DNA of 64,000 nucleotides from an uncultured Bacteroidia bacterium (GTDB lineage: Bacteria > Bacteroidota > Bacteroidia > Bacteroidales > ML635J-15): the NCBI GenBank assembly GCA_902800045.1, contig CADCCZ010000008.1, positions 24,325-88,324 of the forward strand, read 5' to 3'. The notes below the pieces were generated by a model. The model was given only the letters and a program-made list of their open reading frames with translations, was not told where the DNA came from and did no database searches. The translations under genes and the position numbers were made by a program. This document shows, in pieces, positions 4,420-64,000 of this stretch. The stretch's first letter is position 1; every line of letters begins with the position of its first letter.

Positions 4420-4494
4420 TGTTTTTGCTACACTAAAAAGCACAAAGACAATCACAAAATGTTCTCCGCTATACGCTTCGAACAGAAAAAGCAA

Positions 4495-19935: not shown

Positions 19936-22167
19936 ATGAATAGGAAATTTTTACTTGTTTTGTTAGCTGTAACACTCTCTGCGTCAGCGTTTTCACAGCA
20001 GATTAAAGCCTTAGAGTTCATCTGGAAGGGCAAATACGACAATGCAGTAAAGGCAATAGAGAAAGGTCTGAGCAAGAACATGGACGATGTGGAATTCAAC
20101 TTCTATAAGGCGTATCTTCTGTTCCAAAGGGGATACGAAGGCTACGACCCGGTTGAATCGTACAAATGCCTGCTCAACTGCGAAACATACTATCCGCAAC
20201 TCGACGAAAAGACAAAGGAAAAACTGAATACCGTACCTATCAATCCCGAGGTGTTCAACAAGTACATCGACACCGTATGCCGTTACGCTCTGCGCGATGC
20301 GTCGGTAGCCAACACCTTCGAGGCCTACCAGAACTATCTGTTCTTCTACCGCAAGGCTCCCGAAGACTACAAGACCGAAGCCCGCATGTACCGCGACATC
20401 GAAGCATACAAGCTCGCAATTAAGTCCGACACCGAAGAATCGTACGACTCGTTCATCCGTACCTACCCCGAAGCTCAGCAGATTCCCGATGCAACCATGC
20501 GCCGCGATACAAAAGCCATGGAAAAGGCAAAGGCAGGAAACACTGTAGCATCGTTCGAAGAATTCCTGAAGAAGTACCCGAATTCGGCACTCGCTGGCGA
20601 AGCACAGGAACAAATCTACGTTATTGCACTTGCCGACGCCGAAAAGGAAAACACCTCGGCTGCTCTCAAGCAATACATGGAAAAATATCCTAAGAGTTCG
20701 CAGTACTACAAGGCCGAAATGATGTACGACGAAAAACTGTACAACGAAGAAACCGCCGACGGCAACTGCGGTTCGTACCTCCGCTTTGCAAAGAAATACC
20801 CGAACAGCAAATGGAACAATATGGCTCTCGCTTCGGCAATGCAGTGCGCAGGCGACAATGCCGAGGTTGCAAAATACTGCTTCAAGAAACTCGAGGGCGA
20901 CAAGAAAAAACAGGCACTCAAGCTGTACTACAACGTAATTGCTGCCGACGGCGAAATGATTTCGCTTAAGGCTTTGTACGACGAACTCGACAACAGCCAG
21001 CGTGCAATCATACGCGACAGCTACGTGGCCGACTCGGCAATTGCTGCCATGGGCGACAAGCTGAAACTGCAAGGCAAATACAATCCCAAGAAGGCCGAAT
21101 CGTACGACGAATACATTAAGCAGGCCGCTCCGAAGGAAAAGGCTTTCGTAGCACTGCAGAAGATGATAGAAACCGACATCGACAACAAAAACTGGGCAGG
21201 CGCTGCTGCTACGGTACAGAAATACCGCCAGTACTGGAAGGACAAGACAAAGAAGATTGACAATCTGCTTAGCATCCTCAACGAGAAATCGCAATCGGTT
21301 GTAGCCGAAGCTTTGCCCGAAACGGTAAATACTACAGGCAACGAATACAACCCGATACTTTCGTCCGATGGCAATACCTTGTACTTCTGTGGTGAAGGCC
21401 GCAGCAACAACAAGAGCGGCGAAGACATCTTCGTATCGGAAAGGACTGCCGACGGATGGAGCGAAGCCCAGATTATAAACGAAGTTTCGACAAAGGCAAA
21501 CGACTATCCGCAGTGCATCAACGCTTCGGGCAACACCATGTACATTTTCAAGAACGGAAGATTGTACTTCTCGAAGAAGGCCGGTGCCACCTGGGGAAAG
21601 CCGCAGAAAATGTCAAACAACGTAAACTCGAGCAACTGGCAGGGCGACGCTTTCCTGAGCCACGACGGAAAGGCTCTGTTATTCGCAGCTAAGCGCAGCG
21701 ACATGCTCAACATGTTCAACGATGCCGACTTCGACGGACTTGTATATCACGGAAAAGTTGACGAACACCAGACCGACCTGTACGTTTGCACTATCAACGC
21801 CGATGGCGAATGGGGCAAGCCAGTAAACCTCGGCGGAACGGTCAACACCCTTTACACCGAACGCACTCCGTTCCTTAGCAACGACAACAAGCACCTCTAC
21901 TTCGCTTCCGACGGACACGGAGGTCTTGGCGGACTCGACATGTACGTTTCTACCCGTCTTAGCAACGACTGCTGGGACTGCTGGAGCGAACCTGTAAACC
22001 TCGGCAAGGACATAAACTCCGCTTCCGACGACATGGGCTACAAGATCAGCACCGACGGAACCAAGGCTTACTTCTCGAAGTCGAACGCAGCAAAAGGCAA
22101 GAAGGGCAACCTCGATATCTTTATCATCAACCTTCCCGAAAACCTGCAACCAAAGAACATAAAGTAA
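19936..22167 (+). CDS. Secreted TPR-like and TolB/PD40-like beta-propeller repeat protein
   Basis: Track ORF trimmed to ATG 19936 (MNRKFLLVLLAVTLSASAFSQQ). The N-half is helical-repeat-like. The C-half has PD40-type repeats (NEYNPILSSDGNTLYFCGE, AFLSHDGKALLFAA, ERTPFLSNDNKHLYFASD, YKISTDGTKAYFSK). Confidence 0.7.
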   Translation: MNRKFLLVLLAVTLSASAFSQQIKALEFIWKGKYDNAVKAIEKGLSKNMDDVEFNFYKAYLLFQRGYEGYDPVESYKCLLNCETYYPQLDEKTKEKLNTVPINPEVFNKYIDTVCRYALRDASVANTFEAYQNYLFFYRKAPEDYKTEARMYRDIEAYKLAIKSDTEESYDSFIRTYPEAQQIPDATMRRDTKAMEKAKAGNTVASFEEFLKKYPNSALAGEAQEQIYVIALADAEKENTSAALKQYMEKYPKSSQYYKAEMMYDEKLYNEETADGNCGSYLRFAKKYPNSKWNNMALASAMQCAGDNAEVAKYCFKKLEGDKKKQALKLYYNVIAADGEMISLKALYDELDNSQRAIIRDSYVADSAIAAMGDKLKLQGKYNPKKAESYDEYIKQAAPKEKAFVALQKMIETDIDNKNWAGAAATVQKYRQYWKDKTKKIDNLLSILNEKSQSVVAEALPETVNTTGNEYNPILSSDGNTLYFCGEGRSNNKSGEDIFVSERTADGWSEAQIINEVSTKANDYPQCINASGNTMYIFKNGRLYFSKKAGATWGKPQKMSNNVNSSNWQGDAFLSHDGKALLFAAKRSDMLNMFNDADFDGLVYHGKVDEHQTDLYVCTINADGEWGKPVNLGGTVNTLYTERTPFLSNDNKHLYFASDGHGGLGGLDMYVSTRLSNDCWDCWSEPVNLGKDINSASDDMGYKISTDGTKAYFSKSNAAKGKKGNLDIFIINLPENLQPKNIK

Positions 22168-23660: not shown

Positions 23661-23755
23661 AAAAGTTAATATACACCACGCAAGAATTAAAAGCTAAGCC
23701 ATTTGTTAAATGGGTTGGAGGAAAAGGTCAACTTCTCAGCCAACTTGAATTATAA
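23657..23755 (+). pseudogene. N-terminal remnant (32 codons) of a Dam/DpnM-type (alpha-class) N6-adenine DNA methyltransferase gene
   Basis: My translation is MKKLIYTTQELKAKPFVKWVGGKGQLLSQLEL followed by a stop. KPF.KW.GGK..LL is the conserved N-terminal motif of Dam-family methylases. The ATG overlaps the symporter stop. Confidence 0.6.
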
Positions 23756-23780
23756 TTTGTTATTGTGCTACATAAGTTTT

Positions 23781-24551
23781 ATGGATTTAAATTTTAATCG
23801 TAAGTTAGCAATTGGTTATAAAAGCGGTTCTCAAATATCGAGAGTTGTAACAGAAGATTGGGTTGAACATAATATGTTTTGTCCCATATGTGGTGCTAGA
23901 ATTTTAAATCATTATGAAGCCAACAAACCTGTAGCGGATTTCTTTTGTGATGAATGTAAATCGGACTTTGAATTAAAAAGTAAAGAGAGTAAAAATGCGA
24001 ATATAGGCAATAAAATAACAGATGGTGCTTATGCAACGATGATAGACAGAATCACATCGTTAAAGAATCCACATTTATTTGTGATGACATATTATAATTG
24101 GGCAGTAAACAATCTACTTATAATTCCTAACTACTTTTTTGTCCCTGATATAATTGAAAAGCGTCAACCTTTGAAAGAAACTGCCCGTAGGGCAGGATGG
24201 ATAGGATGTAATATTGAAATAGGGAAAATCCCTGATAGTGGCAAAATATTTATCATCAAAAACAGCCAACAAGAAGATAAATTTAAAGTTATAGACCTTT
24301 ATCAACGAACATTAACATTACAAACTAAAAGAATTGAAAATAGAGGTTGGCTGTTGGATGTACTAAAATGTGTGGAACGCATACCTACAGATAATTTTAA
24401 ACTTGATGATGTATATGTTTTTGCCAAAGAACTTAAGAGAAAGCATCCTGACAATAATTATGTTCATGATAAAATTCGACAACAACTACAATATCTTAGG
24501 GATAAAGGTTTTATTAAATTCACATCAAGAGGACACTATCAAAAAATATAA
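23781..24551 (+). CDS. DpnI-like (Dam-replacing family) methyl-directed type IIM restriction endonuclease
   Basis: Track ORF trimmed to ATG 23781 (MDLNFNRKLAIGYKSGSQISRVVTEDWV). It is collinear with S. pneumoniae DpnI as I recall it, including CP.CG...L.H.E.N.PVADF.C..C...FELKSK, DGAY.TM, TARRAGWIGCNI, and a C-terminal winged-helix end (KIRQQLQ.LRDK). The gene is AT-rich. Confidence 0.85.
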   Translation: MDLNFNRKLAIGYKSGSQISRVVTEDWVEHNMFCPICGARILNHYEANKPVADFFCDECKSDFELKSKESKNANIGNKITDGAYATMIDRITSLKNPHLFVMTYYNWAVNNLLIIPNYFFVPDIIEKRQPLKETARRAGWIGCNIEIGKIPDSGKIFIIKNSQQEDKFKVIDLYQRTLTLQTKRIENRGWLLDVLKCVERIPTDNFKLDDVYVFAKELKRKHPDNNYVHDKIRQQLQYLRDKGFIKFTSRGHYQKI

Positions 24552-24557
24552 TAAACG

Positions 24558-24788
24558 ATGAACGAATATATATTTTACACTACTGAAGGATATACCATAT
24601 CACCGAATAACAATGATGTTGATAATTGCCAAGTACTTGGTTTGGTTTGTGGGAAAAATGTTACTGATGCCCAAAGAAATCTTATAAAAGAGAATCCGTG
24701 GATTAAAAAATTTGGTTATGATATTAATAAAATTATCTGCAAGCAATTGATTACAGATGAAATAAAAAACTTTCTGACAAGCAAATGA
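24558..24788 (+). CDS. Hypothetical small protein (76 aa) downstream of the DpnI-like gene
   Basis: ORF only, with no family recognised. The start lies 7 nt after the DpnI-like stop. Its last ~9 codons overlap the methyltransferase remnant in another frame. Confidence 0.35.
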   Translation: MNEYIFYTTEGYTISPNNNDVDNCQVLGLVCGKNVTDAQRNLIKENPWIKKFGYDINKIICKQLITDEIKNFLTSK

Positions 24789-25156
24789 CGGATGTATGGC
24801 GTTTGCCAGCAATTGCCCAGTGGGAAAAGTCGTGCGGAAAACATCCAACACAAAAACCTTTGGCTCTATTAACACGCATAATTTTAGCATCAACACCTAA
24901 GAACGCTTGGATTCTTGACCCATTTGCAGGTAGTAGCACCACAGGAATTGCAGCAAATCTAATTTCTAGACGTTATCTCGGTATAGAAAAAGAAATATCA
25001 TTTGCAGAAATTGCAAAACAACGAAGATTAGAAATTGAAAATTTAAACAAATTCGCAGAATTCCAATCCAAAATAAAAGATATTTCAATTTCAAAACTTT
25101 ACAATCAGGCTAATCTTCTATGCGAACACTCCGTTTGCGACGACTTACCTTTCTAA
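24761..25156 (+). pseudogene. C-terminal remnant of a beta-class (DpnA-like) N6/N4 DNA methyltransferase. It lacks the catalytic DPPY half.
   Basis: Track ORF 24785..25156 reads MTDVWRLPAIAQWEKSCGKHPTQKPLALLTRIILASTPKNAWILDPFAGSSTTG. This is the HPTQKP and DPF.GSGTT (AdoMet-binding) end only. In-frame similarity (KKLSDKQ) extends upstream to a stop at 24758-24760. The FxGxG glycine is replaced (GSSTT). Confidence 0.65.
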
Positions 25157-26781: not shown

Positions 26782-27024
26782 AGACGCAATTCATTGCGTC
26801 TCAACAGAACGGCGAAGCCATTCAAACCCAGAAACGTGCGAAGCACATTCAAACGCCGCAGGCATTGAAACGGCGTCAGCCACAGAAACAGCGAAGCGAG
26901 AAACGTGCGAAGCACACTGAAACGGGCGTAGCCCATTCAAACGCCGCAGGCATTCAAACGCCGCAGGCATTCAAACAGCGAAGCATAGAAACGTGCGAAG
27001 CACACTGAAACAGCGTCAGCCCAC
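26782..27024. repeat. Hairpin AGACGCAAT-TC-ATTGCGTCT followed by a ~17-nt degenerate tandem array (~12 units) of GNA-loop mini-hairpins
   Basis: Units have the form (C/G)AAAC, then a GC mini-hairpin, then CA(C/T)(A/T). Examples are gtgc-gaa-gcac, gcc-gca-ggc, ggc-gtca-gcc and gggc-gta-gccc. Confidence 0.85.
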
Positions 27025-36636: not shown

Positions 36637-38553
36637 TTAAATCTCATCTGCAGATATTGCCTTCAGTCCCGGCAACTCCTTACCCTCGATGTACTCGAGC
36701 AAAGCACCACCTGCTGTAGAAGCATAGCTAATCTTTTCGCTGAGGTTGAACTTGTTGAGTGCTGCAATGCTGTCGCCACCACCTACGAGGGTAAATGCAC
36801 CAAGTTCGGTAGCACGGCAAACTGCCAAAGCTACCTTCATCGTACCATTGCTGAAGTGTTCCATCTCGAACACACCCATAGGTCCGTTCCAAAGTATGGT
36901 CTTCGAGTTTTCAATAACCTCGGTGTAACGCTGTATTGTCTTCACACCCATATCCATGCCTTCCCAACCGTCGGGAACGTTGCGAACGTCGGCCATGTGT
37001 ATGTTGGCTTCGTTGTCGAACTTGTCACCAATCATGCAGTCAACCGGCAAATAAAGGTTTACATTCAACTTCTTTGCCATATCGAGGATTTCGTTTGCAA
37101 TAGGAATGCAATCGTCCTCAGCCAACGAACGACCAATATTTCCACCCATAGCCTTGATGAAAGTGTAGGAAATACCGCCACCGACAATCAGATTGTCGAC
37201 CTTGGTAATCAACGACTTGATAATGTCAATCTTGGTCGAAATCTTCGAACCGCCAACGATTGCCGTAACAGGCTTTTCGCCAGTGGTGAGCACCTTGTTG
37301 ATGTTGTTTACTTCGTTTTCAACCAAGTAACCGAGCATCTTGTCCTTCGGGAAATATTTTGCAACATAGTACGTCGAAGCGTGAGCGCGGTGAGCAGTAC
37401 CAAAGGCATCGTTTACGTAGCAGTCGCCATACGATGCGAGAGTCTTTACAAACTCCTTCTGCGACTCCTTTATAGCAGCCTTTGCAGCCTTCTTTTCCTC
37501 GTCGGAAGCGTCTTCGGCCAGACCACGTGGCTTGCCTTCCTCTTCGGCGTAGAAACGAAGGTTTTCGAGCAAGAGAACTTCGCCCGACTTCAGTGCAGCA
37601 GCTTGTGCCTGAGCCTTCTGGCAGTCGTCGGCAAACTGTACAGGAACACCGAGGCATTCGCTTACATGCTTAACAATGTGCTTGAGCGAGAACTTATTGT
37701 CAACCTTCTTGGGACGACCGAGGTGCGACATGATTATTACAGCGCCACCATCCTTCAAAATCTTCTTGATAGTCGGAACTTCGCAAACGATACGAGTATC
37801 ATCGGTAATGTTGAAGTTCTCGTCCAGCGGAACATTGAAATCGACGCGCAACAAAACCTTCTTGCCGTTGAAATTATACTTGTCGATAGTATAGCCATCC
37901 TTCGGTGCCTCATCGGTGTGTACGACCTTGCGTTCAGCCTTTTCAACCAACTTTCCGCCTTCGACGAAGAACATTCCGCCTTCGAGACCATAGCGCAAAA
38001 TTGCAGCCTTAGTATCGTCGCCGTCAACCATAGTTTTCAGTCCGTTGGCAGTGCCACGTGCAGCAGCGAGGGCGGTCTTGTAGGTTCCGTATGCGAAGTG
38101 CGGCATTTCGGTGTGACCAAGGGTGCCGTTCCAGATGAATGACTTTGCGCCTTCAATCTTCTCGGCAAAAATGTCAACGGTCTTAACGCCGATGTCCATG
38201 ATGAAGCGGCCTTCGGGAATTTCGTTGAGTTTAACATGTTCGATATTGGAATCGTTTTCGGGCTTGTCGGCAACGTAGCAGTCAACCGGCAGACAAATCT
38301 TTGCAGCATATTTTGCAAGGATTTCCTTTGCACGAGCAACACATTCGTCGCAGGTCTTCGAATTTCCGACGTTCATTCCGCTTGCCTTTGCAAAAGGAGC
38401 AACGAGTGCGCCGCCAACAAGAATCGTATCAACGCCCGATGCAATGCTTTCGATGGCTTCCATCTGTTCCTTTATCTTGTCGCCACCCAACAATACAGTA
38501 ATCGGATGCTCAGCATTCTGAAGCATCATTTTCAAGTTATTTTGCTTATCCAT
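36637..38553 (-). CDS. pgk: Phosphoglycerate kinase with an extra N-terminal degenerate PGK C-domain-like module (638 aa)
   Basis: Residues ~221-638 form a complete PGK ([23 protein letters not shown] ... GGSKISTKI ... WNGPMGVFE ... GGGDS). Residues 1-205 align to the PGK C-domain but have altered motifs. A TAnnTTTG box lies 31 nt upstream of ATG 38553. Confidence 0.9.
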
Positions 38554-47602: not shown

Positions 47603-47611
47603 ATATTTTAA

Positions 47612-47709
47612 TTGATAATGGACAATGGATAATTAATAATTGACAATGAACAATTAGCTTCGCTGAGCTAAAGGTTGATAATGGACAATGGATGTTTAAT
47701 TTTAATGGG
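47612..47709. repeat. Word repeat block (TTGATAATGGACAATGGAT x2) shared with 61517-61578
   Basis: ttgataatggacaatggat occurs at 47612-47630 and 47675-47693. The ~65-nt stretch aattgacaat..aattagcttcgctgagctaaaggttgataatggacaatggat..taatggg recurs upstream of the giant gene. Confidence 0.8.
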
Positions 47710-47782
47710 CTAAAAGGCTAAAAGGCTGACAGGCGAACAGGCTAACGGGCTAGCAGGCTGACAGGCTTGAAGGCTAAAAGCC
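47708..47782. repeat. Strictly phased 8-nt array, 9 units (GGCTNNNN)
   Basis: Units read ggctaaaa ggctaaaa ggctgaca ggcgaaca ggctaacg ggctagca ggctgaca ggcttgaa ggctaaaa. Confidence 0.9.
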
Positions 47783-47841: not shown

Positions 47842-47960
47842 TTGGAATATCTGTCTCGATACTGCATAACTGTTGACTAGCTGCGTACCTGACGGCAGCC
47901 TCATTCGGTCGGATTTTATCCTACCGAAGCATTGTCCCTAACGGGACAGGAGACAGATAA
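47842..47960. mobile_element. Candidate MITE-like or structured-RNA insertion (119 nt) inside the 17-nt array
   Basis: It is flanked by direct TATGC repeats (47837-47841 and 47961-47965). It has 10-bp inverted repeats tatctgtctc (47848-47857) and gagacagata (47950-47959). Three internal hairpins are present. Removing it restores a regular array unit. Confidence 0.4.
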
Positions 47961-47965
47961 TATGC

Positions 47966-48263
47966 CACAGAAACGGCATCAGCCATTCAAACAGCGAAGC
48001 GAGAAACGCCGAAGGCATTGAAACGGCGTCAGCCATTGAAACCTTGAAACGGCGTCAGCCACAGAAACGGCGAAGCTATTCAAACAGCGAAGCGATAAAC
48101 GCCGCAGGCATAAAAACGGCGTAGCCACAGAAACGTGCGAAGCACATAGAAACTTGAAACGCCGCAGGCATTGAAACGGCGTCAGCCACAGAAACGCCGA
48201 AGGCATTCAAACGGCGAAGCCACTGTAACGGCGCCAGCCACTGAAACGCCGAAGGCACAAAAA
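47966..48263. repeat. ~17-nt degenerate tandem array of GNA-loop mini-hairpins (~18 units), second locus
   Basis: Same grammar as 26802-27024, with units such as ggc-gaa-gcc, gcc-gaa-ggc, gcc-gca-ggc, ggc-gta-gcc, gtgc-gaa-gcac and ggc-gtca-gcc. The array head and hairpin lie at 47793-47841. Confidence 0.85.
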
Positions 48264-48276
48264 CTGGCTTTTGCCC

Positions 48277-51843: not shown

Positions 51844-51851
51844 CAAAAATA
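51844..51851 (-). promoter_or_regulatory. Candidate -7 box TATTTTTG (minus strand)
   Basis: 28 nt upstream of the GH3 gene ATG 51815. Confidence 0.5.
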
Positions 51852-51923
51852 TGTAATTTATTCTGTCATTTTTTAAGCAATGCAAAAAAAGTACCAACAA
51901 AAAGGTGTGAAGAGAGGAGAAAA

Positions 51924-51987
51924 GGCGGACAGGCTTGAAGGCTAACGGGCTAAAAGGCTAGAAGGCTAAAAGACGAAAAGGCAACTT
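51924..51987. repeat. Phased 8-nt array, 8 units
   Basis: Units read ggcggaca ggcttgaa ggctaacg ggctaaaa ggctagaa ggctaaaa gacgaaaa ggcaactt. Confidence 0.85.
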
Positions 51988-52003
51988 CAAACTCAAAGGG
52001 CTT

Positions 52004-52452
52004 AAAACGACAACTAGAACAACACGAGACAACAAGGTTCCTCGCAGGGCTCGGAACAAATATATTTTACCACGAACCTTTAGCTCGGCGTAGCCAATTG
52101 CACGAATTTACACGAATATGTTCCTCGCGAGGCTCGGAACGAAAAGAAGAAAACGACAACAAAAACAACAAGGGACAACATAGGACAACAAGAGGGTTCC
52201 TCGCAGGGCTCGGAACGAATAGGAGAAAACGACAACAGAAACAACAAGGGACAACAAAGGACAACAAGAGGATTTCTCACAAGGCTCGGGAAAAAAGGTT
52301 GTCAAAGGTTGTCATAAGTTGTCTTGGTTGTCGTAAAAAGAAGAAAACGACAACCGGAACAACAATAAACAACAAAGGACAACAAATGGGGTTCCTCGCG
52401 GGGCTCGGAAAAAATGTTGTCTGAGGTTGTCAAAGGTTGTCTTGGTTGTCGT
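52004..52452 (-). repeat. Composite intergenic element, copy C (upstream of the GH3 operon, downstream of the giant gene)
   Basis: Built from AAAACGACAAC..GACAAC word arms, 21-mers (52037, 52120, 52196, 52271, 52391), the module ttaccacgaacctttagctcggcgtagccaattgcacgaatttacacgaat, and GTTGTC word arms. Confidence 0.85.
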
Positions 52453-52483
52453 AAAAAAAAAGAAAAAATCCCCGTGGCGGGGA
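52452..52483 (-). terminator. Terminator after the giant cargo gene
   Basis: Stem tccccg/cgggga with loop tgg. On the minus strand it is followed by attttttcttttttttt. Confidence 0.7.
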
Positions 52484-52556
52484 ACCACGAGGATTTTCAA
52501 CAGTTTTATTATGTGTGTTTATTTAGCGTTTGTTTTTCTAGAGACTGAGATGCTAA

Positions 52557-55500
52557 TTATTGTTTCACAACCTTTTTATTTATTACGAAGTCGGCTGTGC
52601 TAACCCTTACCGTGTAGGTTGCCGGTGGCAGATTGCTGAGATTCAAGACAGTCTCATAGTAATTCTGCGGTGAGGCTACCTTGTCGGTGTAGATGAGCTT
52701 GCCGAGCATGTCGTAAACATCGATGCGAGCGGGACGGTTATCGAAATTGTCGAGTTCCAAGGTCAACTCGCCGTAGAACGGGTTCGGGTAGGCCTGGACA
52801 TCGGGCTCGCCAGCTGCCGTTTCGATGCAGTTTACAACCACAACTTCCGAAACTGCGCGTGTGCCGTCGTAGTCAACCTGAACGAGGCGATAGTAGTTGT
52901 CGCCACCGTGGATACCATAGTCGGTGTAAGCATAGTCAATCGGGTCAATCGAGTTTCCTGCGCCCGCCACGCGTGCAAGATCTGTGAAGTTGATTGCATC
53001 GTCGGAACGCTCGAGCACGAAGTAGTCGTTGTTGCGCTCGGTAGCGGTTGTCCACTCTACGAGAACCGAACGACCATCGCAGGTTGCGGTGAAGGATGTG
53101 AGCTCGATTGGCAGTACAACATCCTCGCTCTTCGAACCCAAGGTTAGTATTCCTGAGAAATCGACATCACCAGCACGCGATATAGCTAGAGGAAGGGTAA
53201 CTCCTGTAACCGTAATATTTCCCTCGCTCACGTTTGCCGAACCGCCGAGGTTCTTCCAGCAGTTGTAGTGAGCAGCAGCGCAGATGTTTTCATTCGGTCC
53301 ATCGGCTGGTGCAGTGCTGAAATGACTTGCAGCATCGGCAGCATCAACGGTCAAGGTTATGCCGCTCAACGCTTCAGTTGTAGTTACATTCCAATACTCG
53401 TAGTTGCTTACATGGTCGAAACGACTTGCGCCATCGCTGCTGCACATGTCGTTGATGTTCCACCAGCGAGGCAACTGTTCAAGAGTGAAGCCATGAGTTC
53501 CGTCGGCATTGGTAGCAGTACTATGGTTAAACTTAACGGTTGCCACCTTGCCACTGCCGACAGTTGCCGTAATTGTTCCGAGCACATTGTCGTTGCCGGT
53601 CGGGAATACAAACGAACTGCCGTTACCGGTCTTTGTTACCGTACCGTTTACGTGGCTGGCAATTTTTGCACCAGTAGTACTAGCCGATGCGCCGAAAGCC
53701 ATATCGCCGTTGACAATACCGCTGATGAAATTTGCTTGGTTCGAAACTATTGGCTCAACGCCATCGAAGGTTATACCGCTTGAGTTTCTGAATTCCACAT
53801 TGAACAACGGCAGGCTGCTACCGCTTACCGTTTGCGGTAAAGATCCATTGAATATTATAGAACTATTGTCTCCAACGGTTAATATACCATTATTTTCTAT
53901 ATTTCCAGATATGCTTAAAGTACGATCAGCTTCAATCGAGAGAGCGGCATCCTCGGTTATTGTTATGTTGCGGACATTAACATCGGCATCTAAAATAGGC
54001 CACTGGTCTTCGGGCATACACTGTCCTCCAGTACCTATATAATAACTCTTTGTACCTGTTGGCATAACACCAGAAGCAACAGAATATCTTTCATTTTCAC
54101 TATCATAAAGATACCAGTTGGATGAAGTATTCCAGTCGGTACTTGTTGTGCCACGCCAAATATAATCGTACGACGACAATGTCTGATCGATGTCTGGTAC
54201 ATTTATATATACCTTTAAATCATCGATATTTGTACATTTTTGATTACTTCCAGCAGAAGTCCCAGATGTGTACCTTATAGCTATTCTGCCTGGCTCATTG
54301 ACACTAGCAAAACAATATGGTCCCATAAACTTACATGCAGAATTATTACCAGAAGACCCACGTGGCGTTAGTGATTTCTGGTTATCATACAACACATGGA
54401 ATGTACTAGGATCATTTACATCAGTAATATATCCTATTTCCATCACACCTTCAGGATAAGTATCATTACCATTAGAATTAGCATAAAACTCAAACGCCAA
54501 AGTATTCAGGTCATTTTCGAACTCTGGCAATACAAGCATAATTTTATCCGATGTATTAGATTTTAATTCAACAGATTTGCTTCCATTATGCGCTGCCGGT
54601 TCATAACTTCCAAAAACATACGGTGATTTTATTCCACTTGGATAAGAATTTTGATGAGAAAGTGGTGTTGCCCAACATCTGCTCAATGGACTAGCTTGAT
54701 CTTGTACTATATCATACCCTTCAAAATCTTCCGTCCACGGATTATCAACGGTAATGTTTATTATATCGCAAAGAGGAGTAGTAAACGTCATAAGTTCGCT
54801 CCAATCTGTAGTAGCACCAAGACCATCGCAGTTGACACCTTGTACCTGCCATTCGTAGTTGGTATCGGGATTCAAACCTGTGATAGTAGAAGGAGAGGTA
54901 ACTCCATTAAGGGTTATCCAACTTCCATATTCGCCTGGTTTTACAATGGAGATGTCATCGACATAAATGTACCATGCATATGCGACTACCGAGGTATGAA
55001 CAATAGCAATATATCCTTGTCCAGAATAAGCACTAAGTGAATAAGTGTATTGTTGATAAGTGGTTGATGGATTAATCACATCGGAAATTGCTGTAAAATC
55101 ACTAGTGTTAGTGCCCGAAGTAGATACAAAAACCTGGAATCGCTCGTCACTGCCATACTGTTTAGCATAAAAACTAATTTCTCCTCCAAGAGTGATTTGA
55201 GGTGAAATCAACCAGTTATTTGCATTGTAACCGGAACCACTAGGTGTATAGGACGATTGGATACAATAATTACCCGTATTTCCTCCACTACTTATCGACC
55301 ATGAATTGCCATCGCCGTCTGCATCTATGGTAGTACATCCTTGCATTGTTCTATTTTCGAAATCGTATTTCAAATTAACAGCCTCAGTTATAACTTCCCT
55401 ATACCTCACATTATAGCTTTGTTGGGAGCCAGTCCAGCTAAGGTCGGCTGAAGTTGCTGCTACATTGCTTGTAACAAGATTGTACGGAGTATGGCATGGA

Positions 55501-58500: not shown

Positions 58501-61500
58501 TTATAATTGACCATTGCAAGCGTATATTCATCGTTGGTGCCAGTCGGGTTGCTTCCCATCAGGGCACCATGGTCGGCATAATAGCTTAGTTCGCTACCAG
58601 CGGGGATGCTACCACCAGTATATCCAAGGGTAAGTGGCAAAATGTCATACCCACTATCACTATAACCGCCATAGATTTGTCCGCCGTACATCATACCATG
58701 ATCGTAAGCGGTGATTCCGCTCACACTATAGGTTTGGGTTGGAGAACCGCTCATGGCTACTGTTGTATTGGTGCCAGAGGTAACAGAGTAGGCATGCATT
58801 GCAGTGCCAGTGATGGAGGCATTGTCAGTACCATTATATCCGGAATGGGAAAAACTACCAACTTCCTTGCTATAATAAAAGTTGCTGAAAGAAAGATTCA
58901 CATTACGACCAGATGAATGAACACCTATTGGCGAAAAATTTTCGTAGTATTGATCATTATATTGCACTTGACTAGGAGAAAAATTTCCATTAAAATAACT
59001 GTCTGTAATATTGATTGTTGAATTATAATCTCCAAAACCGAACATACCGCCACGGAATCCTTCAGAAGTAAGTGTACCGTCGAAAACACAGCCGACAATG
59101 TTAGTTGTAGCACTATTGTTGTGACCGATAAGACCGCCCATATAGTTGTTCTTGTCATCGCCAATGCCTGGTGTTTCGTTTGTAACACTAGTGCTCACAT
59201 GACAGTTATAGATAGTGTTTGTACTATTGTTTTTGCAAAAACCGACCAATCCAGAGGCGTGATGAGCGGAGGTTTTTACAGTACCTGTAACATTTAGATT
59301 TTGTATTGTTGCTCCGTCAATATATCGGAAAGGAGCTGCACCTTGATAATCACTGCTAATATTACCATCACCCGAATTATCGATGTTTACTGTTATCGTA
59401 TGGGTATTCCCCTCAAAAGTACCTTTGAAAGGATGACTCGCAGTACCAACCATAGTACTTACATTTGAGATATTCGCATCAAGAGTTACCGTTTCGTTAT
59501 AGTAATCGCAAGTGCCGCTGTTTACATTAGAGCAGAACTCATCCCATTCGGCAGTAGAGGAGATGGAGGTTATGCAGGAGGCGGAAGATTGGGGTTCAAA
59601 ACCAAGTAAAATTTGATTCTTTTTCTTAGATTCATAACTTTTATTATTAGCACTTGGACTTGCTGGATTTATATTTGTATTGTCTTGATAAAAATACAAA
59701 CTCTCGTTATTGGTGCAACTGACAACAACCCAATTTGTTGAACCTTGCCAACTATCAGTATTATCATCAACAGCAATCAAAAGATTTTTTCCGTCTTCGT
59801 ATTCAAAAGGAGTGGACAAATCAATTATTGTCCAATCATTTGCCGTAAAAGTAACACTACCAGAATACACGCGGTCGCTTGAAGTAACTGCAGCATAATC
59901 GTCATTACTAGAAAAAGAACTCTTAGTGGTATTGATCATATATATGTCCAAACTACGAGTGTATCCCTGATTTCCCTTGAAACCAATACTATTGATTGTA
60001 CCGGATCTTCCTATCTCGGAAGAAGTATAAATCTGCTGCGTATAAGAAAAATCATAATACGTATGCGTTGGGAAATAGTTATTTGTTGAAGTTTCCCCCG
60101 ATCCTATAGTAATAGCATTTGTAGGCTTAAATTCGCAAGTGCTGCTCCAGTTGCTTTCGAAATTTGAACCTGCATCACAAACTGCCTTTACGCGGGCATA
60201 GTATGTTGTTTCGGCAGTTAAGCCTGTGAGTTGTGTCGAGGAAGAGCCACTTACATTTTTCGTTTGTGCACTAGTAAAACTGCTGTTTGTAGCATATTCC
60301 ACAACCCAATTAGTTGCAGTGCCGTTTTCTGTCCAACTTAGGTCGGCAATAGTGCCATTGCCAGGAGTTAGAGTTGCTGTCAAACCTGTAGGAGTACGAC
60401 AAGAAGAACAACTTACGGTGTATCTATAAAATTCACCACTTAAACCACTATCATTATGTGAATATATTTCATCGCCATTTGCATCATAGATCACAAACGA
60501 AGTTTCGGAATCATAGCTGCCACTATTCCATTTAAAACTTATACTGCTACCATCCTCAACTAAAAGTGAACCACTAGCCGAATTACCACTGCTTATTGTC
60601 CATGTTGCAAGATTAGCACTTGTTGATGCATCTTCCACACTTATTGATGCTCCATTCCATCCGTCGCCATAACTATCAGAGAGTTGGTAGGTTATTTCAC
60701 AATTATTTCCACTACTTGGCACTTTGAACTGCAATTCGGTAAGTTGGAAAACATTACCACTAGCAATCGCCGACACTTCAAAACGAAAGTACTGGTAAGT
60801 GCTTGTATTGCTCAGATTAAAAGTATAGTCCCTAAGATTAAAATCCTGAAGGGTGGTATTGTTTGTTTGTGTTTCTATTGTCGTCCATGCATCGCCAGAG
60901 TTTCTCTTGGCCTTAATGACCCAACTTCTAGGATTACGACCAGTCCAATCAGTACAGTCACCGCCTGTGGTCATCACATAACCCACTGGAACAATAGGTT
61001 CGGCGCTATGGAATTCCACATAGATAGGACTGTAACTAGAGAAAGAAGTAACGCACCACTTTGATCCTGCAGTTTTCTGATTGTCTATCAATTTAGCAGG
61101 GCTTTGGTCGGATGCATAACTGGATGTGCCATTATCGTAAGTGTACGATGTATATGTTGTCTGTCCCCACGCCTTACCACCAAAGAATAAGCAAAGCAAA
61201 ACAGCGAATGCGGTTAAGAGTGAAGAGTTAAAAGTTGCTCTTCGCCGAGCAGGAGATTGGCTGCGCCGAGCTAAAGGTGCCGCATAAACAGGCTCACTCG
61301 ACACGTTCCTTAGTCGGTTCGCTTTGTTTTGCGGAATGACGACCGACGAGAGTCGTTTTCTACCAACAGTACTAATATCTTGACAAGCCCCCCCCCCTGT
61401 AGACGAAAGAGTTAAGAGAGAAGATTCGATGATTTGAGGATTCGATGATTTGAAGATTTTCGAATTTTCAATTTCGTTGGATTTTTTTAGGGTTGTATTG

Positions 61501-61505
61501 TTCAT
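52557..61505 (-). CDS. Giant (2982 aa) adhesin-like T9SS cargo. Domains are discoidin-like, FN3-like, GLUG-motif repeats, choice-of-anchor-J-like modules and a C-terminal type A sorting domain.
   Basis: The signal-like segment LLTAFAVLLCLFFGGKAWGQ appears only at residues ~95-115. FN3-like modules are present (CRTPTGLTATL..TTYYARVKAVC). Two ~420-aa internal repeats carry GGLVG/GGLIGH-type GLUG motifs and end ..TGTNDEYTL. The C-terminal domain reads AYPNPFYGELTLEL...KKVVKQ. The true start is uncertain (ATG 61505 or GTG 61304). Confidence 0.85.
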   Translation of the reverse strand: MNNTTLKKSNEIENSKIFKSSNPQIIESSLLTLSSTGGGACQDISTVGRKRLSSVVIPQNKANRLRNVSSEPVYAAPLARRSQSPARRRATFNSSLLTAFAVLLCLFFGGKAWGQTTYTSYTYDNGTSSYASDQSPAKLIDNQKTAGSKWCVTSFSSYSPIYVEFHSAEPIVPVGYVMTTGGDCTDWTGRNPRSWVIKAKRNSGDAWTTIETQTNNTTLQDFNLRDYTFNLSNTSTYQYFRFEVSAIASGNVFQLTELQFKVPSSGNNCEITYQLSDSYGDGWNGASISVEDASTSANLATWTISSGNSASGSLLVEDGSSISFKWNSGSYDSETSFVIYDANGDEIYSHNDSGLSGEFYRYTVSCSSCRTPTGLTATLTPGNGTIADLSWTENGTATNWVVEYATNSSFTSAQTKNVSGSSSTQLTGLTAETTYYARVKAVCDAGSNFESNWSSTCEFKPTNAITIGSGETSTNNYFPTHTYYDFSYTQQIYTSSEIGRSGTINSIGFKGNQGYTRSLDIYMINTTKSSFSSNDDYAAVTSSDRVYSGSVTFTANDWTIIDLSTPFEYEDGKNLLIAVDDNTDSWQGSTNWVVVSCTNNESLYFYQDNTNINPASPSANNKSYESKKKNQILLGFEPQSSASCITSISSTAEWDEFCSNVNSGTCDYYNETVTLDANISNVSTMVGTASHPFKGTFEGNTHTITVNIDNSGDGNISSDYQGAAPFRYIDGATIQNLNVTGTVKTSAHHASGLVGFCKNNSTNTIYNCHVSTSVTNETPGIGDDKNNYMGGLIGHNNSATTNIVGCVFDGTLTSEGFRGGMFGFGDYNSTINITDSYFNGNFSPSQVQYNDQYYENFSPIGVHSSGRNVNLSFSNFYYSKEVGSFSHSGYNGTDNASITGTAMHAYSVTSGTNTTVAMSGSPTQTYSVSGITAYDHGMMYGGQIYGGYSDSGYDILPLTLGYTGGSIPAGSELSYYADHGALMGSNPTGTNDEYTLAMVNYNTIINANVFHLKLHIVSSILDPSTQMLWTEFAANVNHGYTYSGKTVYLDNDITVDRMAGASGDVPANTHPFSGIFEGQGNTITVNYTASDWNCTAPFRCIYGATIRDLRTTGTINMGSYKYAGGLVGESYGNNTITNCESNVTINSSVNGDGTHGGFIAKTRGQYPSGYDEYTTTFTGCAFTGSLLGANTKWSGGFVGFDEYGIYGSSGKVVFNDCLFAPAEVTMIGEWSDGGGSATFSRYRESSKITLNNCYYTQPFGTAQGKQAYTVEGINGVTATMDGAPTYTVSGITVYGDDKGIKHNGTIYGANGDELDLLLSYGGTFYEYVADHGTLSGSELTGTNDEYTLEMEASDTKISVITCPQPTGLAVDNISATSATVSLVGAGASYNFGSPYINDIPQGYAVITLTAGDVWGDGSGYQMLLDATATAYGTTIPTSGGLTSSGDADASVYAEFEYKIPENADGALSTSNIVINNSITITIPAGTYDWCITNPTDGDRMWIASEYGNVGGRADNYSFEAGKHYEFIVANGSNGYDKTDVYQVLYQDNTVSPNVFTGLVPNTAYRVYAQTDCGGDLSDWSGGVSFTTECAAIDVTGTWTEDFESVADYSIPDCWKRIVGYDSWPYVYSYSYYAHGGDGYLYMYHPSAENIIALPPMNNINTLMISLWAKASEIPKEIEIGYVSNGAFTMVESFNLTTEYQQYATSFVNVPDYAERIAIRSADDDYYYVYIDDINIGTCLPPVSLNVSDTTSTTATLNWTGNSDSYTVRYREPAIEPLSENFDANSIPTGWTQYSGLVDEVISGNTTLSTYSGWYTSEYALGSYNAKVNIWGGSCYYWLVTPEQTLAAGSALNFDLALTAYNSNSAASGTCDDDRFVVLIYADNAWHILREWNNSGSSYVYNEIETAGENVNIDLTSYIGQTVKIAFYGESTASGGDNDLHIDNVQLGGAPVAATDWETVEVNTTTATITGLTPLTNYEWQVQGVCDGSPTDWSDINTFTTLDPCHTPYNLVTSNVAATSADLSWTGSQQSYNVRYREVITEAVNLKYDFENRTMQGCTTIDADGDGNSWSISSGGNTGNYCIQSSYTPSGSGYNANNWLISPQITLGGEISFYAKQYGSDERFQVFVSTSGTNTSDFTAISDVINPSTTYQQYTYSLSAYSGQGYIAIVHTSVVAYAWYIYVDDISIVKPGEYGSWITLNGVTSPSTITGLNPDTNYEWQVQGVNCDGLGATTDWSELMTFTTPLCDIINITVDNPWTEDFEGYDIVQDQASPLSRCWATPLSHQNSYPSGIKSPYVFGSYEPAAHNGSKSVELKSNTSDKIMLVLPEFENDLNTLAFEFYANSNGNDTYPEGVMEIGYITDVNDPSTFHVLYDNQKSLTPRGSSGNNSACKFMGPYCFASVNEPGRIAIRYTSGTSAGSNQKCTNIDDLKVYINVPDIDQTLSSYDYIWRGTTSTDWNTSSNWYLYDSENERYSVASGVMPTGTKSYYIGTGGQCMPEDQWPILDADVNVRNITITEDAALSIEADRTLSISGNIENNGILTVGDNSSIIFNGSLPQTVSGSSLPLFNVEFRNSSGITFDGVEPIVSNQANFISGIVNGDMAFGASASTTGAKIASHVNGTVTKTGNGSSFVFPTGNDNVLGTITATVGSGKVATVKFNHSTATNADGTHGFTLEQLPRWWNINDMCSSDGASRFDHVSNYEYWNVTTTEALSGITLTVDAADAASHFSTAPADGPNENICAAAHYNCWKNLGGSANVSEGNITVTGVTLPLAISRAGDVDFSGILTLGSKSEDVVLPIELTSFTATCDGRSVLVEWTTATERNNDYFVLERSDDAINFTDLARVAGAGNSIDPIDYAYTDYGIHGGDNYYRLVQVDYDGTRAVSEVVVVNCIETAAGEPDVQAYPNPFYGELTLELDNFDNRPARIDVYDMLGKLIYTDKVASPQNYYETVLNLSNLPPATYTVRVSTADFVINKKVVKQ
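61388..61397 (-). repeat. Homopolymer tract: C10 on the plus strand, G10 on the coding strand
   Basis: It lies inside the annotated 5' part of the giant ORF (codons TGGGA), upstream of the signal-peptide-like segment. Confidence 0.95.
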
Positions 61506-61516
61506 GGGTAATTTAT

Positions 61517-61578
61517 AATTGACAATTAGCTACGCTGAGCTGAAGGTTGATAATGGACAATGGATAATTAATAATGGG
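61517..61578. repeat. Copy of the ~65-nt word block also found at 47638-47709
   Basis: Sequence aattgacaattagctacgctgagctgaaggttgataatggacaatggataattaataatgggg. Confidence 0.8.
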
Positions 61579-61884
61579 GTTATGATAGAGGATTTGATAA
61601 TTTGGGAATGCTGCTTCGATAAATGAGGAAACAGAATTATTTACAATAGGCTGATTATAAATGCTTTTACGCCACCCTATCGGGTTTGAGGCACTATGGC
61701 ATAATACATTGATAATGCACGACACACTAAACAATTTCATAAAATAAAGTAACAAACAAAAATAAAACAACTAACAAAGGTGTAAAAATATAAATTTCAC
61801 GAGAAACTATAGTACCACAAAGAGGTTTTTATACAAAATGGAGAGTAAGGAATATTTGAAGCAGAATTGGTGAGAGAAAAGGAG

Positions 61885-62190
61885 AAAACGACAATAGGAA
61901 CAACAACAAACAACAAAGTTCCTCGCAGGGCTCGGAACAACAAAAAAAGAAAACGACAACATGGACAACATAAGACAACAAGGGGTTCCTCGCGGAGCTC
62001 GGAACGAATATTTTTTACCACGAATTGCACGAATTTACACGAATATGTTCCTCGCAAGGCTCAGAACGGAAAGAAGAAACGACAACAGGAACAACAACAA
62101 ACAACAAGGAACAACAAGGTTCCTCGAGAGGCTCGGAAAAAAGGTTGTCATAAGTTGTCTTGGTTGTCGTAAAAAGAAGAAAACGACAGC
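61885..62190 (-). repeat. Composite intergenic element, copy D (upstream of the giant gene)
   Basis: Same module order as copy C. 21-mers lie at 61918, 61985, 62047 and 62119. The submodule cctttagctcggcgtagccaat is missing. Confidence 0.85.
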
Positions 62191-62343: not shown

Positions 62344-63630
62344 CTACATAAGCGCCGCAAGCGCATACAGCGGTATATTTTCCATCCAGCCTTGGTCGAT
62401 GTGTGGTTTCATCGAAAATCTAACACCTTTCAAATCAGGATGCTTTTCGATAAATGTCCTGAGCGATTTTGAACGGACATTTTCTTCGGCCTTGACCTCC
62501 ATAGGACATATCCTACCTGAAATTTGTGCGATAAAATCAATCTCGACCCTCGAATCGTTTGTCGAATAATAATACATCTGAATGCCCCTTGACACAAATT
62601 GCGAAAGCACAAATTCCTCGGCAAATGCACCCTTATACTCGACAAATATATTGTTGCCGACCATTATGTCCGCTGCCTGGACATCCATCATCGCACCAAG
62701 CAAACCGACATCAAGCATAAACAATTTGAAGACATTTTGCTCGGAATAAAAACGCAAAGGCAAATGCGGCTCCGTCACCCGATGGACCTTATATACCAAA
62801 CCCATATCCATAAGCCATTGTATTGCAAGCTCAAATTCGCTTGCCCGACCGCCTTTCTTTACCTCGCTGTACTGAAACTTCTTGTTTTCCTTGGCAAGCT
62901 GACGGGGAATGTTGTTCCACACAAGATTTATCCGTGCAACCTCCCTGCTGTCGGGATGTTTCGAGAAATCGTGCGAATAGTCGAAAAGAATCTGTTTCTG
63001 CATGTTTCGCACTTGTATAAGTCCGGCTTCTTCAGAATATGCCTTCACAACAGCTGGCATTCCTCCCACATAATAGTACTGGCGAAGAAAATCCATGTAC
63101 ATCGACGACAATGCATCAATCAGCTTCCAGTCGCCACTATGCAGCAACTGAACAAGCTGCTCCTTGCCCATCGCCAACAGGAATTCCTCAAAGTCCATAG
63201 GGTACAATTGCAGCATGTCAACTTTCCCCACAGGAAAAGAAATGCCCTTGTGCAACATTATACCAAGCAGCGAACCTGCAACGGCAATATGGTATTCGGG
63301 GGCATCTTCGCAAAAATATTTCAACGCAGTCAATGCACGCGGATATTCCTGTATCTCGTCAATTATGATTAATGTCTCGCCCGGACGAATGTCAACTCCC
63401 GACATCGCCGACAAAGCCATTATCATACGCCTTGTGTCGAAATCTGTAAATACGAATTCTATATTTTCGGCTTTCTCACAGTTGATATAAGCCACCGATT
63501 TGTATTCTTCCCTGCCAAAATTTTGAAGCAACCAGGTCTTTCCAACTTGACGCGCACCATTCAAAATCAATGGTTTCCTGCTGGTATTATTCTTCCATTT
63601 TACTAAATCGTTGAATAACAGTCGTTTCAT
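62344..63630 (-). CDS. AAA+ ATPase with a DUF4143-type C-terminal domain
   Basis: Track ORF 62344..63774 trimmed to ATG 63630 (MKRLLFNDLVKWKNNTSRKPLILNGARQVGKTWLL, which includes Walker A). The 48 upstream codons are translated 33-bp repeats. The architecture matches the widespread ATPase-plus-DUF4143 family. Confidence 0.8.
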   Translation of the reverse strand: MKRLLFNDLVKWKNNTSRKPLILNGARQVGKTWLLQNFGREEYKSVAYINCEKAENIEFVFTDFDTRRMIMALSAMSGVDIRPGETLIIIDEIQEYPRALTALKYFCEDAPEYHIAVAGSLLGIMLHKGISFPVGKVDMLQLYPMDFEEFLLAMGKEQLVQLLHSGDWKLIDALSSMYMDFLRQYYYVGGMPAVVKAYSEEAGLIQVRNMQKQILFDYSHDFSKHPDSREVARINLVWNNIPRQLAKENKKFQYSEVKKGGRASEFELAIQWLMDMGLVYKVHRVTEPHLPLRFYSEQNVFKLFMLDVGLLGAMMDVQAADIMVGNNIFVEYKGAFAEEFVLSQFVSRGIQMYYYSTNDSRVEIDFIAQISGRICPMEVKAEENVRSKSLRTFIEKHPDLKGVRFSMKPHIDQGWMENIPLYALAALM

Positions 63631-63638
63631 AATTACAA

Positions 63639-63724
63639 TACATTTTTTTGCACGAATATTCGCCACAAAATTACATTTTTTTGCACGAATAAAGAGACAA
63701 TTTTTACATTTTTTTGCACGTAAA
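63639..63724. repeat. Three 33-bp direct repeats (TACATTTTTTTGCACGAAT core) upstream of the ATPase gene
   Basis: Cores lie at 63639-63657, 63672-63690 and 63705-63720. Confidence 0.85.
63666..63673 (-). promoter_or_regulatory. Candidate -7 box TAATTTTG (minus strand)
   Basis: 35 nt upstream of the ATPase ATG 63630, between 33-bp repeat units 1 and 2. Confidence 0.4.
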
Positions 63725-63742
63725 GGGGCGAGAAGGCGGGAG

Positions 63743-64000
63743 AAAACGACAACAGGAACAACACGAGACAACAAAAGGTTCCTCGCGGAGCTCGGAACGA
63801 ATATTTTTTACCACGAACCTTTAGCTCGGCGTAGCCAATTACACGAATATACACGAATAGGATTCCTCGCGGAGCTCGGAATGGAAAGAAGAAAACGACA
63901 ACAAAAACAACATAAAACAACAAGGAACAACAAAGGGGGTTCCTCGCAGGGCTCGGAAAAAAAGTTGTCAAAGGTTGTCATAAGTTGTCTTGGTTGTCGT
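63743..64000 (-). repeat. Composite intergenic element, copy H (upstream of the ATPase gene, runs to the window end)
   Basis: Collinear with copy C at roughly 85-90 percent identity by eye. 21-mers lie at 63778, 63862 and 63939. Confidence 0.85.

Follow-up and report, generated by a model that had tools for sequence, protein, structure and literature searches.

What are the long, strongly folding repeats that stand ahead of several genes in this DNA, and do they act on the genes that they face? The stretch analysed here, called the window throughout, comprises 64,000 nt from an uncultured Bacteroidia bacterium (GenBank assembly GCA_902800045.1, contig CADCCZ010000008.1, positions 24,325 to 88,324). 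A sequence-only reading of it had described one composite element in three minus-strand copies (52004-52452, 61885-62190 and 63743-64000) and two plus-strand cores (3872-3951 and 4563-4642), each directed at the next gene. Our results indicated that this element is a mosaic of separable modules, with units joined head to tail in one polarity into arrays that lie upstream of predicted promoters and that grow, shrink and exchange modules rapidly. The account that we put first, while holding it at slightly less than even, is that of a lineage-specific modular intergenic repeat family, similar in type to repetitive extragenic palindromic (REP) sequences, bacterial interspersed mosaic elements (BIMEs), BOX and BrickBuilt, possibly serving as a one-way transcription barrier ahead of promoters.

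Modular structure of the repeats

All five copies were located at the positions claimed for them, in numbers far beyond chance. A 21-nt sequence that we call M3 (GTTCCGAGCNNNGCGAGGAAC) occurs 15 times in the window at three or fewer mismatches (0.04 expected), and a 29-mer of the core four times (0 expected). Every repeat copy is intergenic, and intergenic DNA makes up ~9% of the window. The claim that the three minus-strand copies (arrays A, D and E, in the order of their coordinates) share one ordered core is true of two of them; array D has no 29-mer, an absence noticed in the sequence-only reading as well, and reads GCAATTCGTGGTAAAAAATATTCGTTCCGAGC, which amounts to a clean absence of ~21 nt where a second motif, M2, would be. 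Comparison loci are cited below by number; in one of them (L002), array E extends past the window end to ~720 nt.

M3 is a hairpin (GTTCC-GA-GC-NNN-GC-GA-GGAAC) in which a 5-bp stem leads through a tandem G.A/A.G mismatch and two G-C pairs to a triloop of variable sequence. It is nearly its own reverse complement, and its strands are told apart only by the tandem mismatch, which is G.A/A.G on one and T.C/C.T on the other. Among 38 distinct copies, standard pairing was kept in 91% of cells and two-sided changes were seen at three pairs (G-C to A-T at 1-21; C-G to T-A at 4-18 and 5-17); shuffles matched the observed two-sided change in 0/500 cases when counted by cells and in 4/500 when counted by pairs. 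Residues G6 and A16 are invariant. Folded as RNA, the gene (G.A) strand reaches -7.5 kcal/mol vs -5.4 kcal/mol for the other strand, a difference of 2.1 kcal/mol. The M3 hairpin is under structural constraint and has strand-specific features.

Around M3 stand arms of short words at 10-11 nt spacing, GACAAC on the left and GTTGTY (GTTGTC) on the right, forming hairpins of ~100 nt with M3 in the loop. The words are paired and the spacers unpaired, with pyrimidine-rich spacers on the same strand in both arms. A 12-nt pyrimidine tail lies behind each right arm, T/C-only after every GTTGTCGT, and the gene strand of the arrays contains 36.6% T and 17.7% A. The complete unit of hairpin plus tail (118 nt) folds at -34.1 kcal/mol (z-score -7.6), and its 8-bp basal stem ACGACAAC/GTTGTCGT passes directly into the T/C-only tail, abutting UUUUCUCC. 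The majority of units consist of M3, right arm and tail only (76 nt); overall, unit types in the window measure 62-84, 76 and 118 nt, with M3 21-mers spaced 62-120 nt apart. The core unit is ordered as M3, ATTCGTG words, optional M2, TAAAA and M3 again, an order that recurs in metagenome loci such as L161 and L176. Further modules include a TTTTTCGGCNNGCCGAAAAA hairpin, promoter-adjacent runs of 8-nt TTTTAGCC words, and a ~115-nt module (GGCGTTTGCGTCTGGAGATCGCGGATAGCAGTCTCCGCAACGCTCC...) inserted in arrays in either orientation (L002 9310-9425, L176, L199, L238, L240 and L243).

Word repeats with periods of 7, 8, 10-11, 16 and 17 nt were observed in the window. Arrays of 17-nt units, each with GAAAC and a mini-hairpin with a GNA loop (GCCGAAGGC, GGCGTCAGCC, GTGCGAAGCAC), occupy 26800-27020 and 47950-48270 of the plus strand, where one array lies in a divergent region and the other between two minus-strand genes. 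Other periodic runs at 18827-18975, 47610-47781 and 61500-61580 are built of 8-nt GGCTAAAA, 16-nt GTCTGACAGAAGACCT and 7-nt GATAATG/GACAATG words. The 7-nt runs surround an M2-like TAGCTNCGCTGAGCTRAAGG and lie just upstream of ruvA and of the gene for a 2982-aa protein, antisense to both. Outside the window, 230 nt of 8-nt CCGTTAAA words reach the start codon of a GH3 gene (L243 2290-2517).

Position relative to terminators and promoters

The gene labels around the arrays were borne out by domain matches. The gene at 4042 encodes GxxExxY (TIGR04256, 2.2e-40) and the gene at 4717 PorP/SprF (TIGR03519); the 2982-aa secretion cargo protein bears a Por_Secre_tail domain, and the ATPase gene between arrays combines AAA_14 and DUF4143. 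As had been claimed, the minus-strand direct copies bracket the cargo gene and the ATPase gene. Window genes carry Bacteroidetes-type TAnnTTTG boxes (predicted -7 boxes) close ahead of their start codons. The arrays and the sites around them are as follows.

52464-52498, minus strand: canonical intrinsic terminator of the 2982-aa cargo gene; array A starts ~12 nt beyond it
52004-52452, minus strand: array A, comprising in minus-strand order two complete ~105-nt word-arm hairpins (52452-52347 and 52334-52229, a T/C tail behind each), M3 plus right-arm units, the core (52140-52037) and the last right arm (52036-52008)
52037-52140, minus strand: core unit of array A, with M3 at 52140-52120, ATTCGTG words, M2 at 52098-52070, TAAAA tail and M3 at 52057-52037
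51915-51990, minus strand: 8-nt word run that separates array A from the promoter, reading TTTTAGCC on the gene strand and strain-variable in copy number
51844-51851, minus strand: predicted -7 box TATTTTTG of the 991-aa GH3/beta-lactamase gene (ATG 51815), downstream of array A
61885-62190, minus strand: array D, with one complete word-arm hairpin (62170-62079), a core without M2, and four M3 copies (62139-62119, 62067-62047, 62005-61985, 61938-61918)
61757-61764, minus strand: predicted -7 box TATTTTTG, kept in L161, ahead of the 2982-aa cargo gene (ATG 61505)
62344-63630, minus strand: AAA_14/DUF4143 ATPase gene, with arrays E and D on its two sides; together with one array, not present in the relative L161
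63743-64000, minus strand: array E, interrupted by the window end (~720 nt at L002 9170-9890), with M3 at 63959-63939, 63882-63862 and 63798-63778 and M2 at 63839-63811
63640-63730, minus strand: three direct copies of ATTCGTGCAAAAAAATGTA, immediately ahead of the ATPase start
63666-63673, minus strand: predicted -7 box TAATTTTG of the ATPase gene (ATG 63630), inside the three ATTCGTGCAAAAAAATGTA copies
3716-3794, minus strand: degenerate copy with two M2-like motifs (3716-3742, 3743-3765) and an M3-like hairpin (3775-3794)
3790-4000, plus strand: composite of CACGAAT words, TTTTTTCGGCAAGCCGAAAAAA hairpin, M2 (3872-3900), ATTCGTG words, M3 (3931-3951) and second M3 (3980-4000)
4012-4019, plus strand: -7 box TACTTTTG, 11 nt past M3 and 22 nt ahead of the GxxExxY ATG (4042)
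4480-4690, plus strand: paralogous composite with M2 (4563-4591) and M3 (4621-4641 and 4670-4690)
4702-4709, plus strand: -7 box TACCTTTG behind the paralogous composite; porP ATG at 4717

Between same-direction genes, arrays start ~12 nt past a canonical terminator, as at 52464-52498; in L002, a 2699-aa cargo gene has the same hairpin. A TAnnTTTG box was predicted between array and start codon in 10/10 loci, mostly 30-90 nt ahead of the ATG. Within 7.5 kb of arrays, base composition would lead one to expect ~5 such boxes on the gene strand, where two were found; the other strand has none. Because the arrays lie upstream of the predicted promoters and are themselves poor in boxes, they would be neither leaders nor, in general, carriers of promoters. 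The suggestion of a mobile promoter-bearing cassette was consequently rejected as a general description, the -7 boxes being depleted within arrays; it applies to the GxxExxY and porP copies only, a paralogous pair in which M3, A7, TACYTTTG and TGTT form part of the repeat.

These observations bear most directly on the leading idea of the sequence-only reading, that the downstream gene has the element as its transcribed 5' leader, with an attenuator or RNA-stability role. Such a role would fit the shared polarity of array and gene, the strong structure of the gene-strand RNA (array A as a whole folds at -149 kcal/mol, z-score -5.8) and the greater stability of M3 on that strand. However, the predicted -7 boxes fall downstream of the arrays, and the arrays begin directly past strong terminators, which makes a leader very improbable.

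Alternatively, the arrays could be upstream promoter elements or protein-binding arrays, in which phased GTTGTC, TTTG-containing and ATTCGTG words recruit polymerase or a regulator on one helix face. The word spacing of one helical turn and the conservation of words over variable spacers would be consistent with this, as would the preference for promoter-containing regions and the immediate adjacency of arrays and promoters: the array tail GTTGTCGTTTTCT leads straight into TAATTTTGtTATCTTTG in L174 and L238, and at GxxExxY and porP M3 is placed 11 nt ahead of the -7 box. Yet the arrays are 300-1100 nt long, far above any known upstream element, and their many word types would need many binding proteins. 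Considering also that the downstream genes share no function and that distal units are freely swapped between strains, we judge this explanation unlikely.

Polarity and distribution of M3 arrays

A single polarity, defined by M3 or by GTTGTYGT plus the pyrimidine tail, was found in 31/31 arrays. M3 was present in only 17 of 116 loci recovered with M2 (see below), and further array loci were obtained by a protein search with an open reading frame (ORF) that reads through an array, which gave 17 clusters whose contigs supplied the extra loci. A related ORF also occurs in an NCBI metagenome-assembled genome named "Bacteroidales bacterium". Judging from these matches, M3 arrays appear to be confined to a narrow, uncultured lineage of Bacteroidales, probably from the rumen.

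The array-spanning ORFs have 100-130 aa (window 52098-52424 plus strand, 61867-62172 plus strand and 63633-63971 minus strand; L002 9200-9601). One of them is called as a gene in public assemblies, and the 17 related "protein" clusters (P0001-P0017) have no domain; the ORFs are almost certainly annotation artefacts.

After orthologous loci were merged, ~14 independent arrays were left for a comparison with gene orientation, some of the loci being paralogous.

Same-direction genes, array in gene direction: ~6 (porP; 991-aa GH3/beta-lactamase; 2982-aa cargo, also in L161; ATPase; beta-flower gene of L238; DUF8429 gene of L238)
Same-direction genes, array antisense: 1 (L206/L246, flanked by a terminator and a promoter of its own)
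Divergent regions: 6 (GxxExxY; L243/L122; L214; L174; L199; C10-peptidase locus, L240 and orthologues)
Convergent region: 1 (L218; the next gene is a DUF4143 ATPase gene sitting between two arrays)

Since an element in a divergent region is co-oriented by definition, the informative ratios are 6:1 among same-direction regions and 6:1 for divergent over convergent regions. Each corresponds to P = ~0.06, and together they are modest and suggestive. In 4/6 divergent regions the array is closer to the gene that it points to. The arrays can therefore be described, modestly, as promoter-proximal and polar, as the sequence-only reading had proposed. Its count of five co-oriented copies out of five is correct as a count but corresponds to about 2-4 independent events inside the window, because the copy at 3872 lies in a divergent region, and so is automatically co-oriented with the gene it points to, and because the three minus-strand copies are neighbours within 12 kb. 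In addition, the sixth, degenerate copy (3716-3794) faces the other way, towards a minus-strand gene starting at 3528. Replication direction was rejected as the cause of polarity because GC skew has one sign across the window whereas both polarities coexist, even within 3716-4000. The genes downstream of arrays (GH3/beta-lactamase, secretion cargo, PorP, GxxExxY, DUF4143 ATPase, ABC-2 permease, beta-flower protein and C10 peptidase) are functionally diverse and have no common function.

With regard to M2, a 28-nt motif (ATTGGCTACGCCGAGCTAAAGGTTCGTG) set within ATTCGTG word runs, the pattern of occurrence was different. An exact-pattern scan of metagenome contigs returned 116 loci with 117 distinct contexts, reduced to 84 non-redundant clusters. 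M2 is preceded by ATT in 111/117 contexts and followed by TTCGTG, and it looks like a 21-nt insertion in an ATTCGTG-type word (ATT|CGTG). The clean M2-less version is that of array D; an orthologous empty site was not found, and a target-site duplication would be unreadable because T-runs flank the repeats on both sides. Between same-direction genes, M2 was sense in 17 clusters and antisense in 10, and 11 clusters were divergent and 12 convergent; the downstream gene was co-oriented in 40 and opposite in 27. M3 followed within 40 nt in only 10 clusters. Being dispersed without clear polarity relative to genes, M2 alone, scattered through rumen metagenomes, is REP-like litter. The assertion that the element is not such litter thus fails for M2.

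The behaviour of M2 also raises the question of whether the arrays as a whole are selfish or neutral repeat DNA, akin to REP sequences or MITEs (miniature transposable elements with inverted repeats), spread by some enzyme or by local duplication and gene conversion, with a polarity and a promoter-side position that stem from the insertion or duplication mechanism or from chance in a small sample. This is a real possibility, which we rate somewhat below the account put first. It would accommodate the near-absence of polarity in M2, the ~115-nt module that occurs in either orientation, the antisense exception at L206/L246, and the MITE-like terminal inverted repeats of the word-arm hairpin (ACGACAAC...GTTGTCGT). 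Neutral litter does not predict, however, the strict polarity of the arrays, their strand-specific tandem G.A or the excess of divergent over convergent regions, and no transposase, integrase or Y1 gene of the REP-associated tyrosine transposase (RAYT) type, nor any cas gene, was found when window ORFs of >=100 aa and the genes called in fetched loci were scanned.

Differences between relatives

A 195.5-kb metagenome contig (L002; ENA ERZ27280666 k141_123952) contains the window at 100% identity, and a second relative, from another sample, shows 99% identity. The arrays are identical between L001 and L002. Other relatives differ by whole modules. Compared with L176/L177, the promoter-side 300 nt (core, last arm, words and promoter) are almost identical, and ~480 nt of other modules stand in place of three distal hairpin units; among these modules is a copy, on its own, of the 150 nt that elsewhere lie 3' of the ATPase gene. 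The number of 8-nt words differs by three units, and L177 has 24 extra nt. In L161 (~90% identical), a single array separates two cargo genes, the ATPase gene and the other array being missing; the match is 93% to the 3' end of the 2699-aa cargo gene and 83% to the start of the 2982-aa cargo gene. The direct copies had been proposed as substrates for deletion, and the arrangement in L161 agrees with this.

Gene ends appear to move together with the repeats. An identity of 86% extends over the last ~800 nt of two cargo genes, the terminators behind them and the first array unit (L002 8516-9299 vs 20485-21287, the latter being window 52350-53150), which points to segmental copying or gene conversion. 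From these differences between relatives, arrays seem to travel with adjoining gene ends, to turn over as units come and go, and to mediate the gain or loss of genes between them. Recombination between units presumably drives the change, and this turnover would also remove or admit genes lying between two arrays. Segmental copying and whole-module differences are what selfish repeats would produce; the conservation between strains of the promoter-side core next to variable distal parts argues against them.

DUF4143/AAA_14 ATPase genes adjoin arrays or sit between them in several loci, in either orientation (L214, L218/L174, L238 and L243); L214 and L238 have the ATPase gene beside the same array and cargo gene in opposite orientations. 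Such genes account for ~5 of ~650 ORFs in the fetched loci.

Direct repeats that bracket single genes, a variably present ATPase gene and a 21-nt repeat every 62-120 nt could also evoke integron attC sites or an array of CRISPR type marking gene cassettes. However, RYYYAAC/GTTRRRY core sites are missing (the ends CGACAAC / GTTGTCG do not fit), the gene scan described above showed neither integrase nor cas genes, the "spacers" are themselves repeated words, and the repeat has 21 nt vs the 23-55 nt of CRISPR. Arrays also stand beside 9-kb housekeeping-type genes, and the bracketed ATPase gene occurs in either orientation. Both readings are excluded on sequence, and the chance that either is right is negligible.

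Comparison with known elements

The sequence-only reading knew of no described element with this architecture. Rfam searches returned no match at the gathering threshold and nothing relevant at E up to 5, and literature searches with the hairpin sequence and for GxxExxY or Prevotella repeats retrieved no description of this element. The kind of element is known nonetheless; new are this family, its strict polarity toward the next promoter, its phased word arms and its strand-specific tandem-G.A hairpin, so that the arrays are only moderately unusual.

In BIMEs, REP units alternate in orientation, unlike M3 in the arrays. Like REP sequences, which are imperfect palindromes of 20-40 nt, the 21-nt M3 is imperfectly palindromic, intergenic and in many copies, and the arrays recall REP/BIME in their extragenic mosaics with other motifs, their internal stem mismatch and their restriction to a lineage. 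The arrays differ in that M3 has a uniform polarity in 31/31 arrays whereas REPINs are inverted pairs, in the lack of a RAYT gene in the gene sets scanned, in favouring promoter-side regions and not 3' ends, and in their phased 6-nt word arms, which have no counterpart in the REP/BIME elements of Enterobacteria and Pseudomonas or in REPINs and their RAYT transposases (PMC3116915, PMC3337134). The BOX elements of Streptococcus pneumoniae resemble the arrays in having few box types, variable internal units, intergenic location, strong folding and strain variability, the last seen here in the numbers of units and 8-nt words; there is no sequence relation, BOX has boxA and boxC ends where the arrays have no fixed ends, and strict polarity toward the downstream gene is not reported for BOX (PMC3049150). 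BrickBuilt of Porphyromonas gingivalis, a minisatellite within a MITE that is always intergenic and 49-591 nt from coding sequences, is likewise a multi-copy, species-restricted Bacteroidales element of short units in tandem, with a leader part, a tail part and small inverted ends, the latter comparable to the ACGACAAC start and GTTGTCGT end of the word-arm unit. BrickBuilt, however, has a spacer-less 23-nt tandem repeat vs composite units of 62-118 nt, and bidirectional promoter elements are reported within it, whereas the arrays are poor in promoter boxes (PMC4596501). Intrinsic (Rho-independent) terminators share with the arrays a hairpin plus U-rich run on one strand only, between transcription units. 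Their sequence features are present in complete units and absent from M3 plus right-arm units; the array stems are long and interrupted (~100 nt, internal loops), and most units have no stem abutting a U-run.

The hairpin itself is more widespread than the arrays. At least 119 genome loci, drawn from many phyla, contain the same 18 fixed bases as M3, and among the matches listed a GNA triloop (70/120), a preceding GTC (40/120) and a following CT (37/120) are far above chance. This form, GTC-GTTCCGAGC-GNA-GCGAGGAAC-CT, was observed within repeat elements of many bacterial and archaeal phyla (L003-L121, matches listed), embedded in the local repeat families of those genomes; in Alphaproteobacteria, it lies inside CCCTCTCCCC...GGGAGAGGG / GGGTGAGGGG mosaics. 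For 20 of these loci, Rfam at gathering and permissive thresholds gave no family covering the hairpin, and no GxxExxY homologue was present in the 119 loci listed; the gene context of the matches depends on ORF calls, which are unreliable in high-GC DNA. Either convergence on a hairpin of unusual stability or a common recognition site could account for the recurrence. A bolder proposal, which we consider a long shot, is that M3 is the local form of a widespread strand-specific hairpin (stem, tandem G.A, GC, GNA loop; GTC-GTTCCGAGCGNAGCGAGGAAC-CT) recognised by single-strand DNA- or RNA-binding machinery, here built into directional promoter-insulating arrays that would be landing or exchange sites for DUF4143 ATPase genes.

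Other features of the window

The GC content of the window is 44.6%, and the C-terminal domain of type IX secretion is present on many of its proteins. At 23703-25156, a DpnI-like gene (Dam-replacing family) precedes a 123-aa ORF whose match to an N6/N4 DNA methylase is confined to the final third, probably a truncated gene. The phosphoglycerate kinase ORF at 36637-38553 (minus strand) has 638 aa with its PGK domain beginning at residue 223, which may reflect either an N-terminal extension or a listed start too far upstream.

A possible one-way barrier

What, then, might the arrays do? To the idea that they form a one-way transcription barrier we give about one chance in three. Under this proposal, arrays would stop RNA polymerase arriving from upstream before it reaches the next promoter. 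On the strand toward that promoter, M3 is stabler and U-rich tails follow the arms; complete units would resemble large terminators in that direction only. The proposal arises from the location of the arrays, which have an upstream terminator or divergent promoter on one side and the next promoter on the other, with the hairpin-plus-U-run strand directed toward the latter. A barrier would explain the occurrence of arrays ahead of promoters in both same-direction and divergent regions, their rarity where no promoter needs protection, and the rarity of the opposite polarity.

Several points weigh against it. The termination argument is drawn from sequence features, a simple terminator scan calls only 52464-52498, and most units have no hairpin abutting a U-run, so that they do not stand out as terminators. 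Folding of the long hairpins is about as strong on one strand as on the other (-34.1 vs -35.8 kcal/mol), and divergent regions have no known transcript to block. The orientation sample is small: 10/12 gives P ~0.08 under a null of ~0.6 that allows for longer divergent regions, and L206/L246 is one clean antisense exception. Whole units differ between close relatives, which speaks against a tightly constrained function. Taken together, a selfish or neutral repeat is about as likely as a barrier, an upstream binding array is less likely, and a leader is unlikely.

Whatever their role, the arrays serve as recombination substrates through which strains gain or lose genes, which matters for strain comparison and genome assembly, and they yield spurious ORFs that public pipelines call as genes (52098-52424 and 61867-62172). 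By a rough estimate from coordinates, these and the related "word" repeats make up ~45% of the intergenic DNA of the window, in a host that is an abundant uncultured rumen Bacteroidales. If the proposal is true, one-way barriers would give Bacteroidetes, a group with few known parts of this sort, a compact natural insulator, and would account for how very highly expressed secretion-cargo genes do not interfere with their neighbours.

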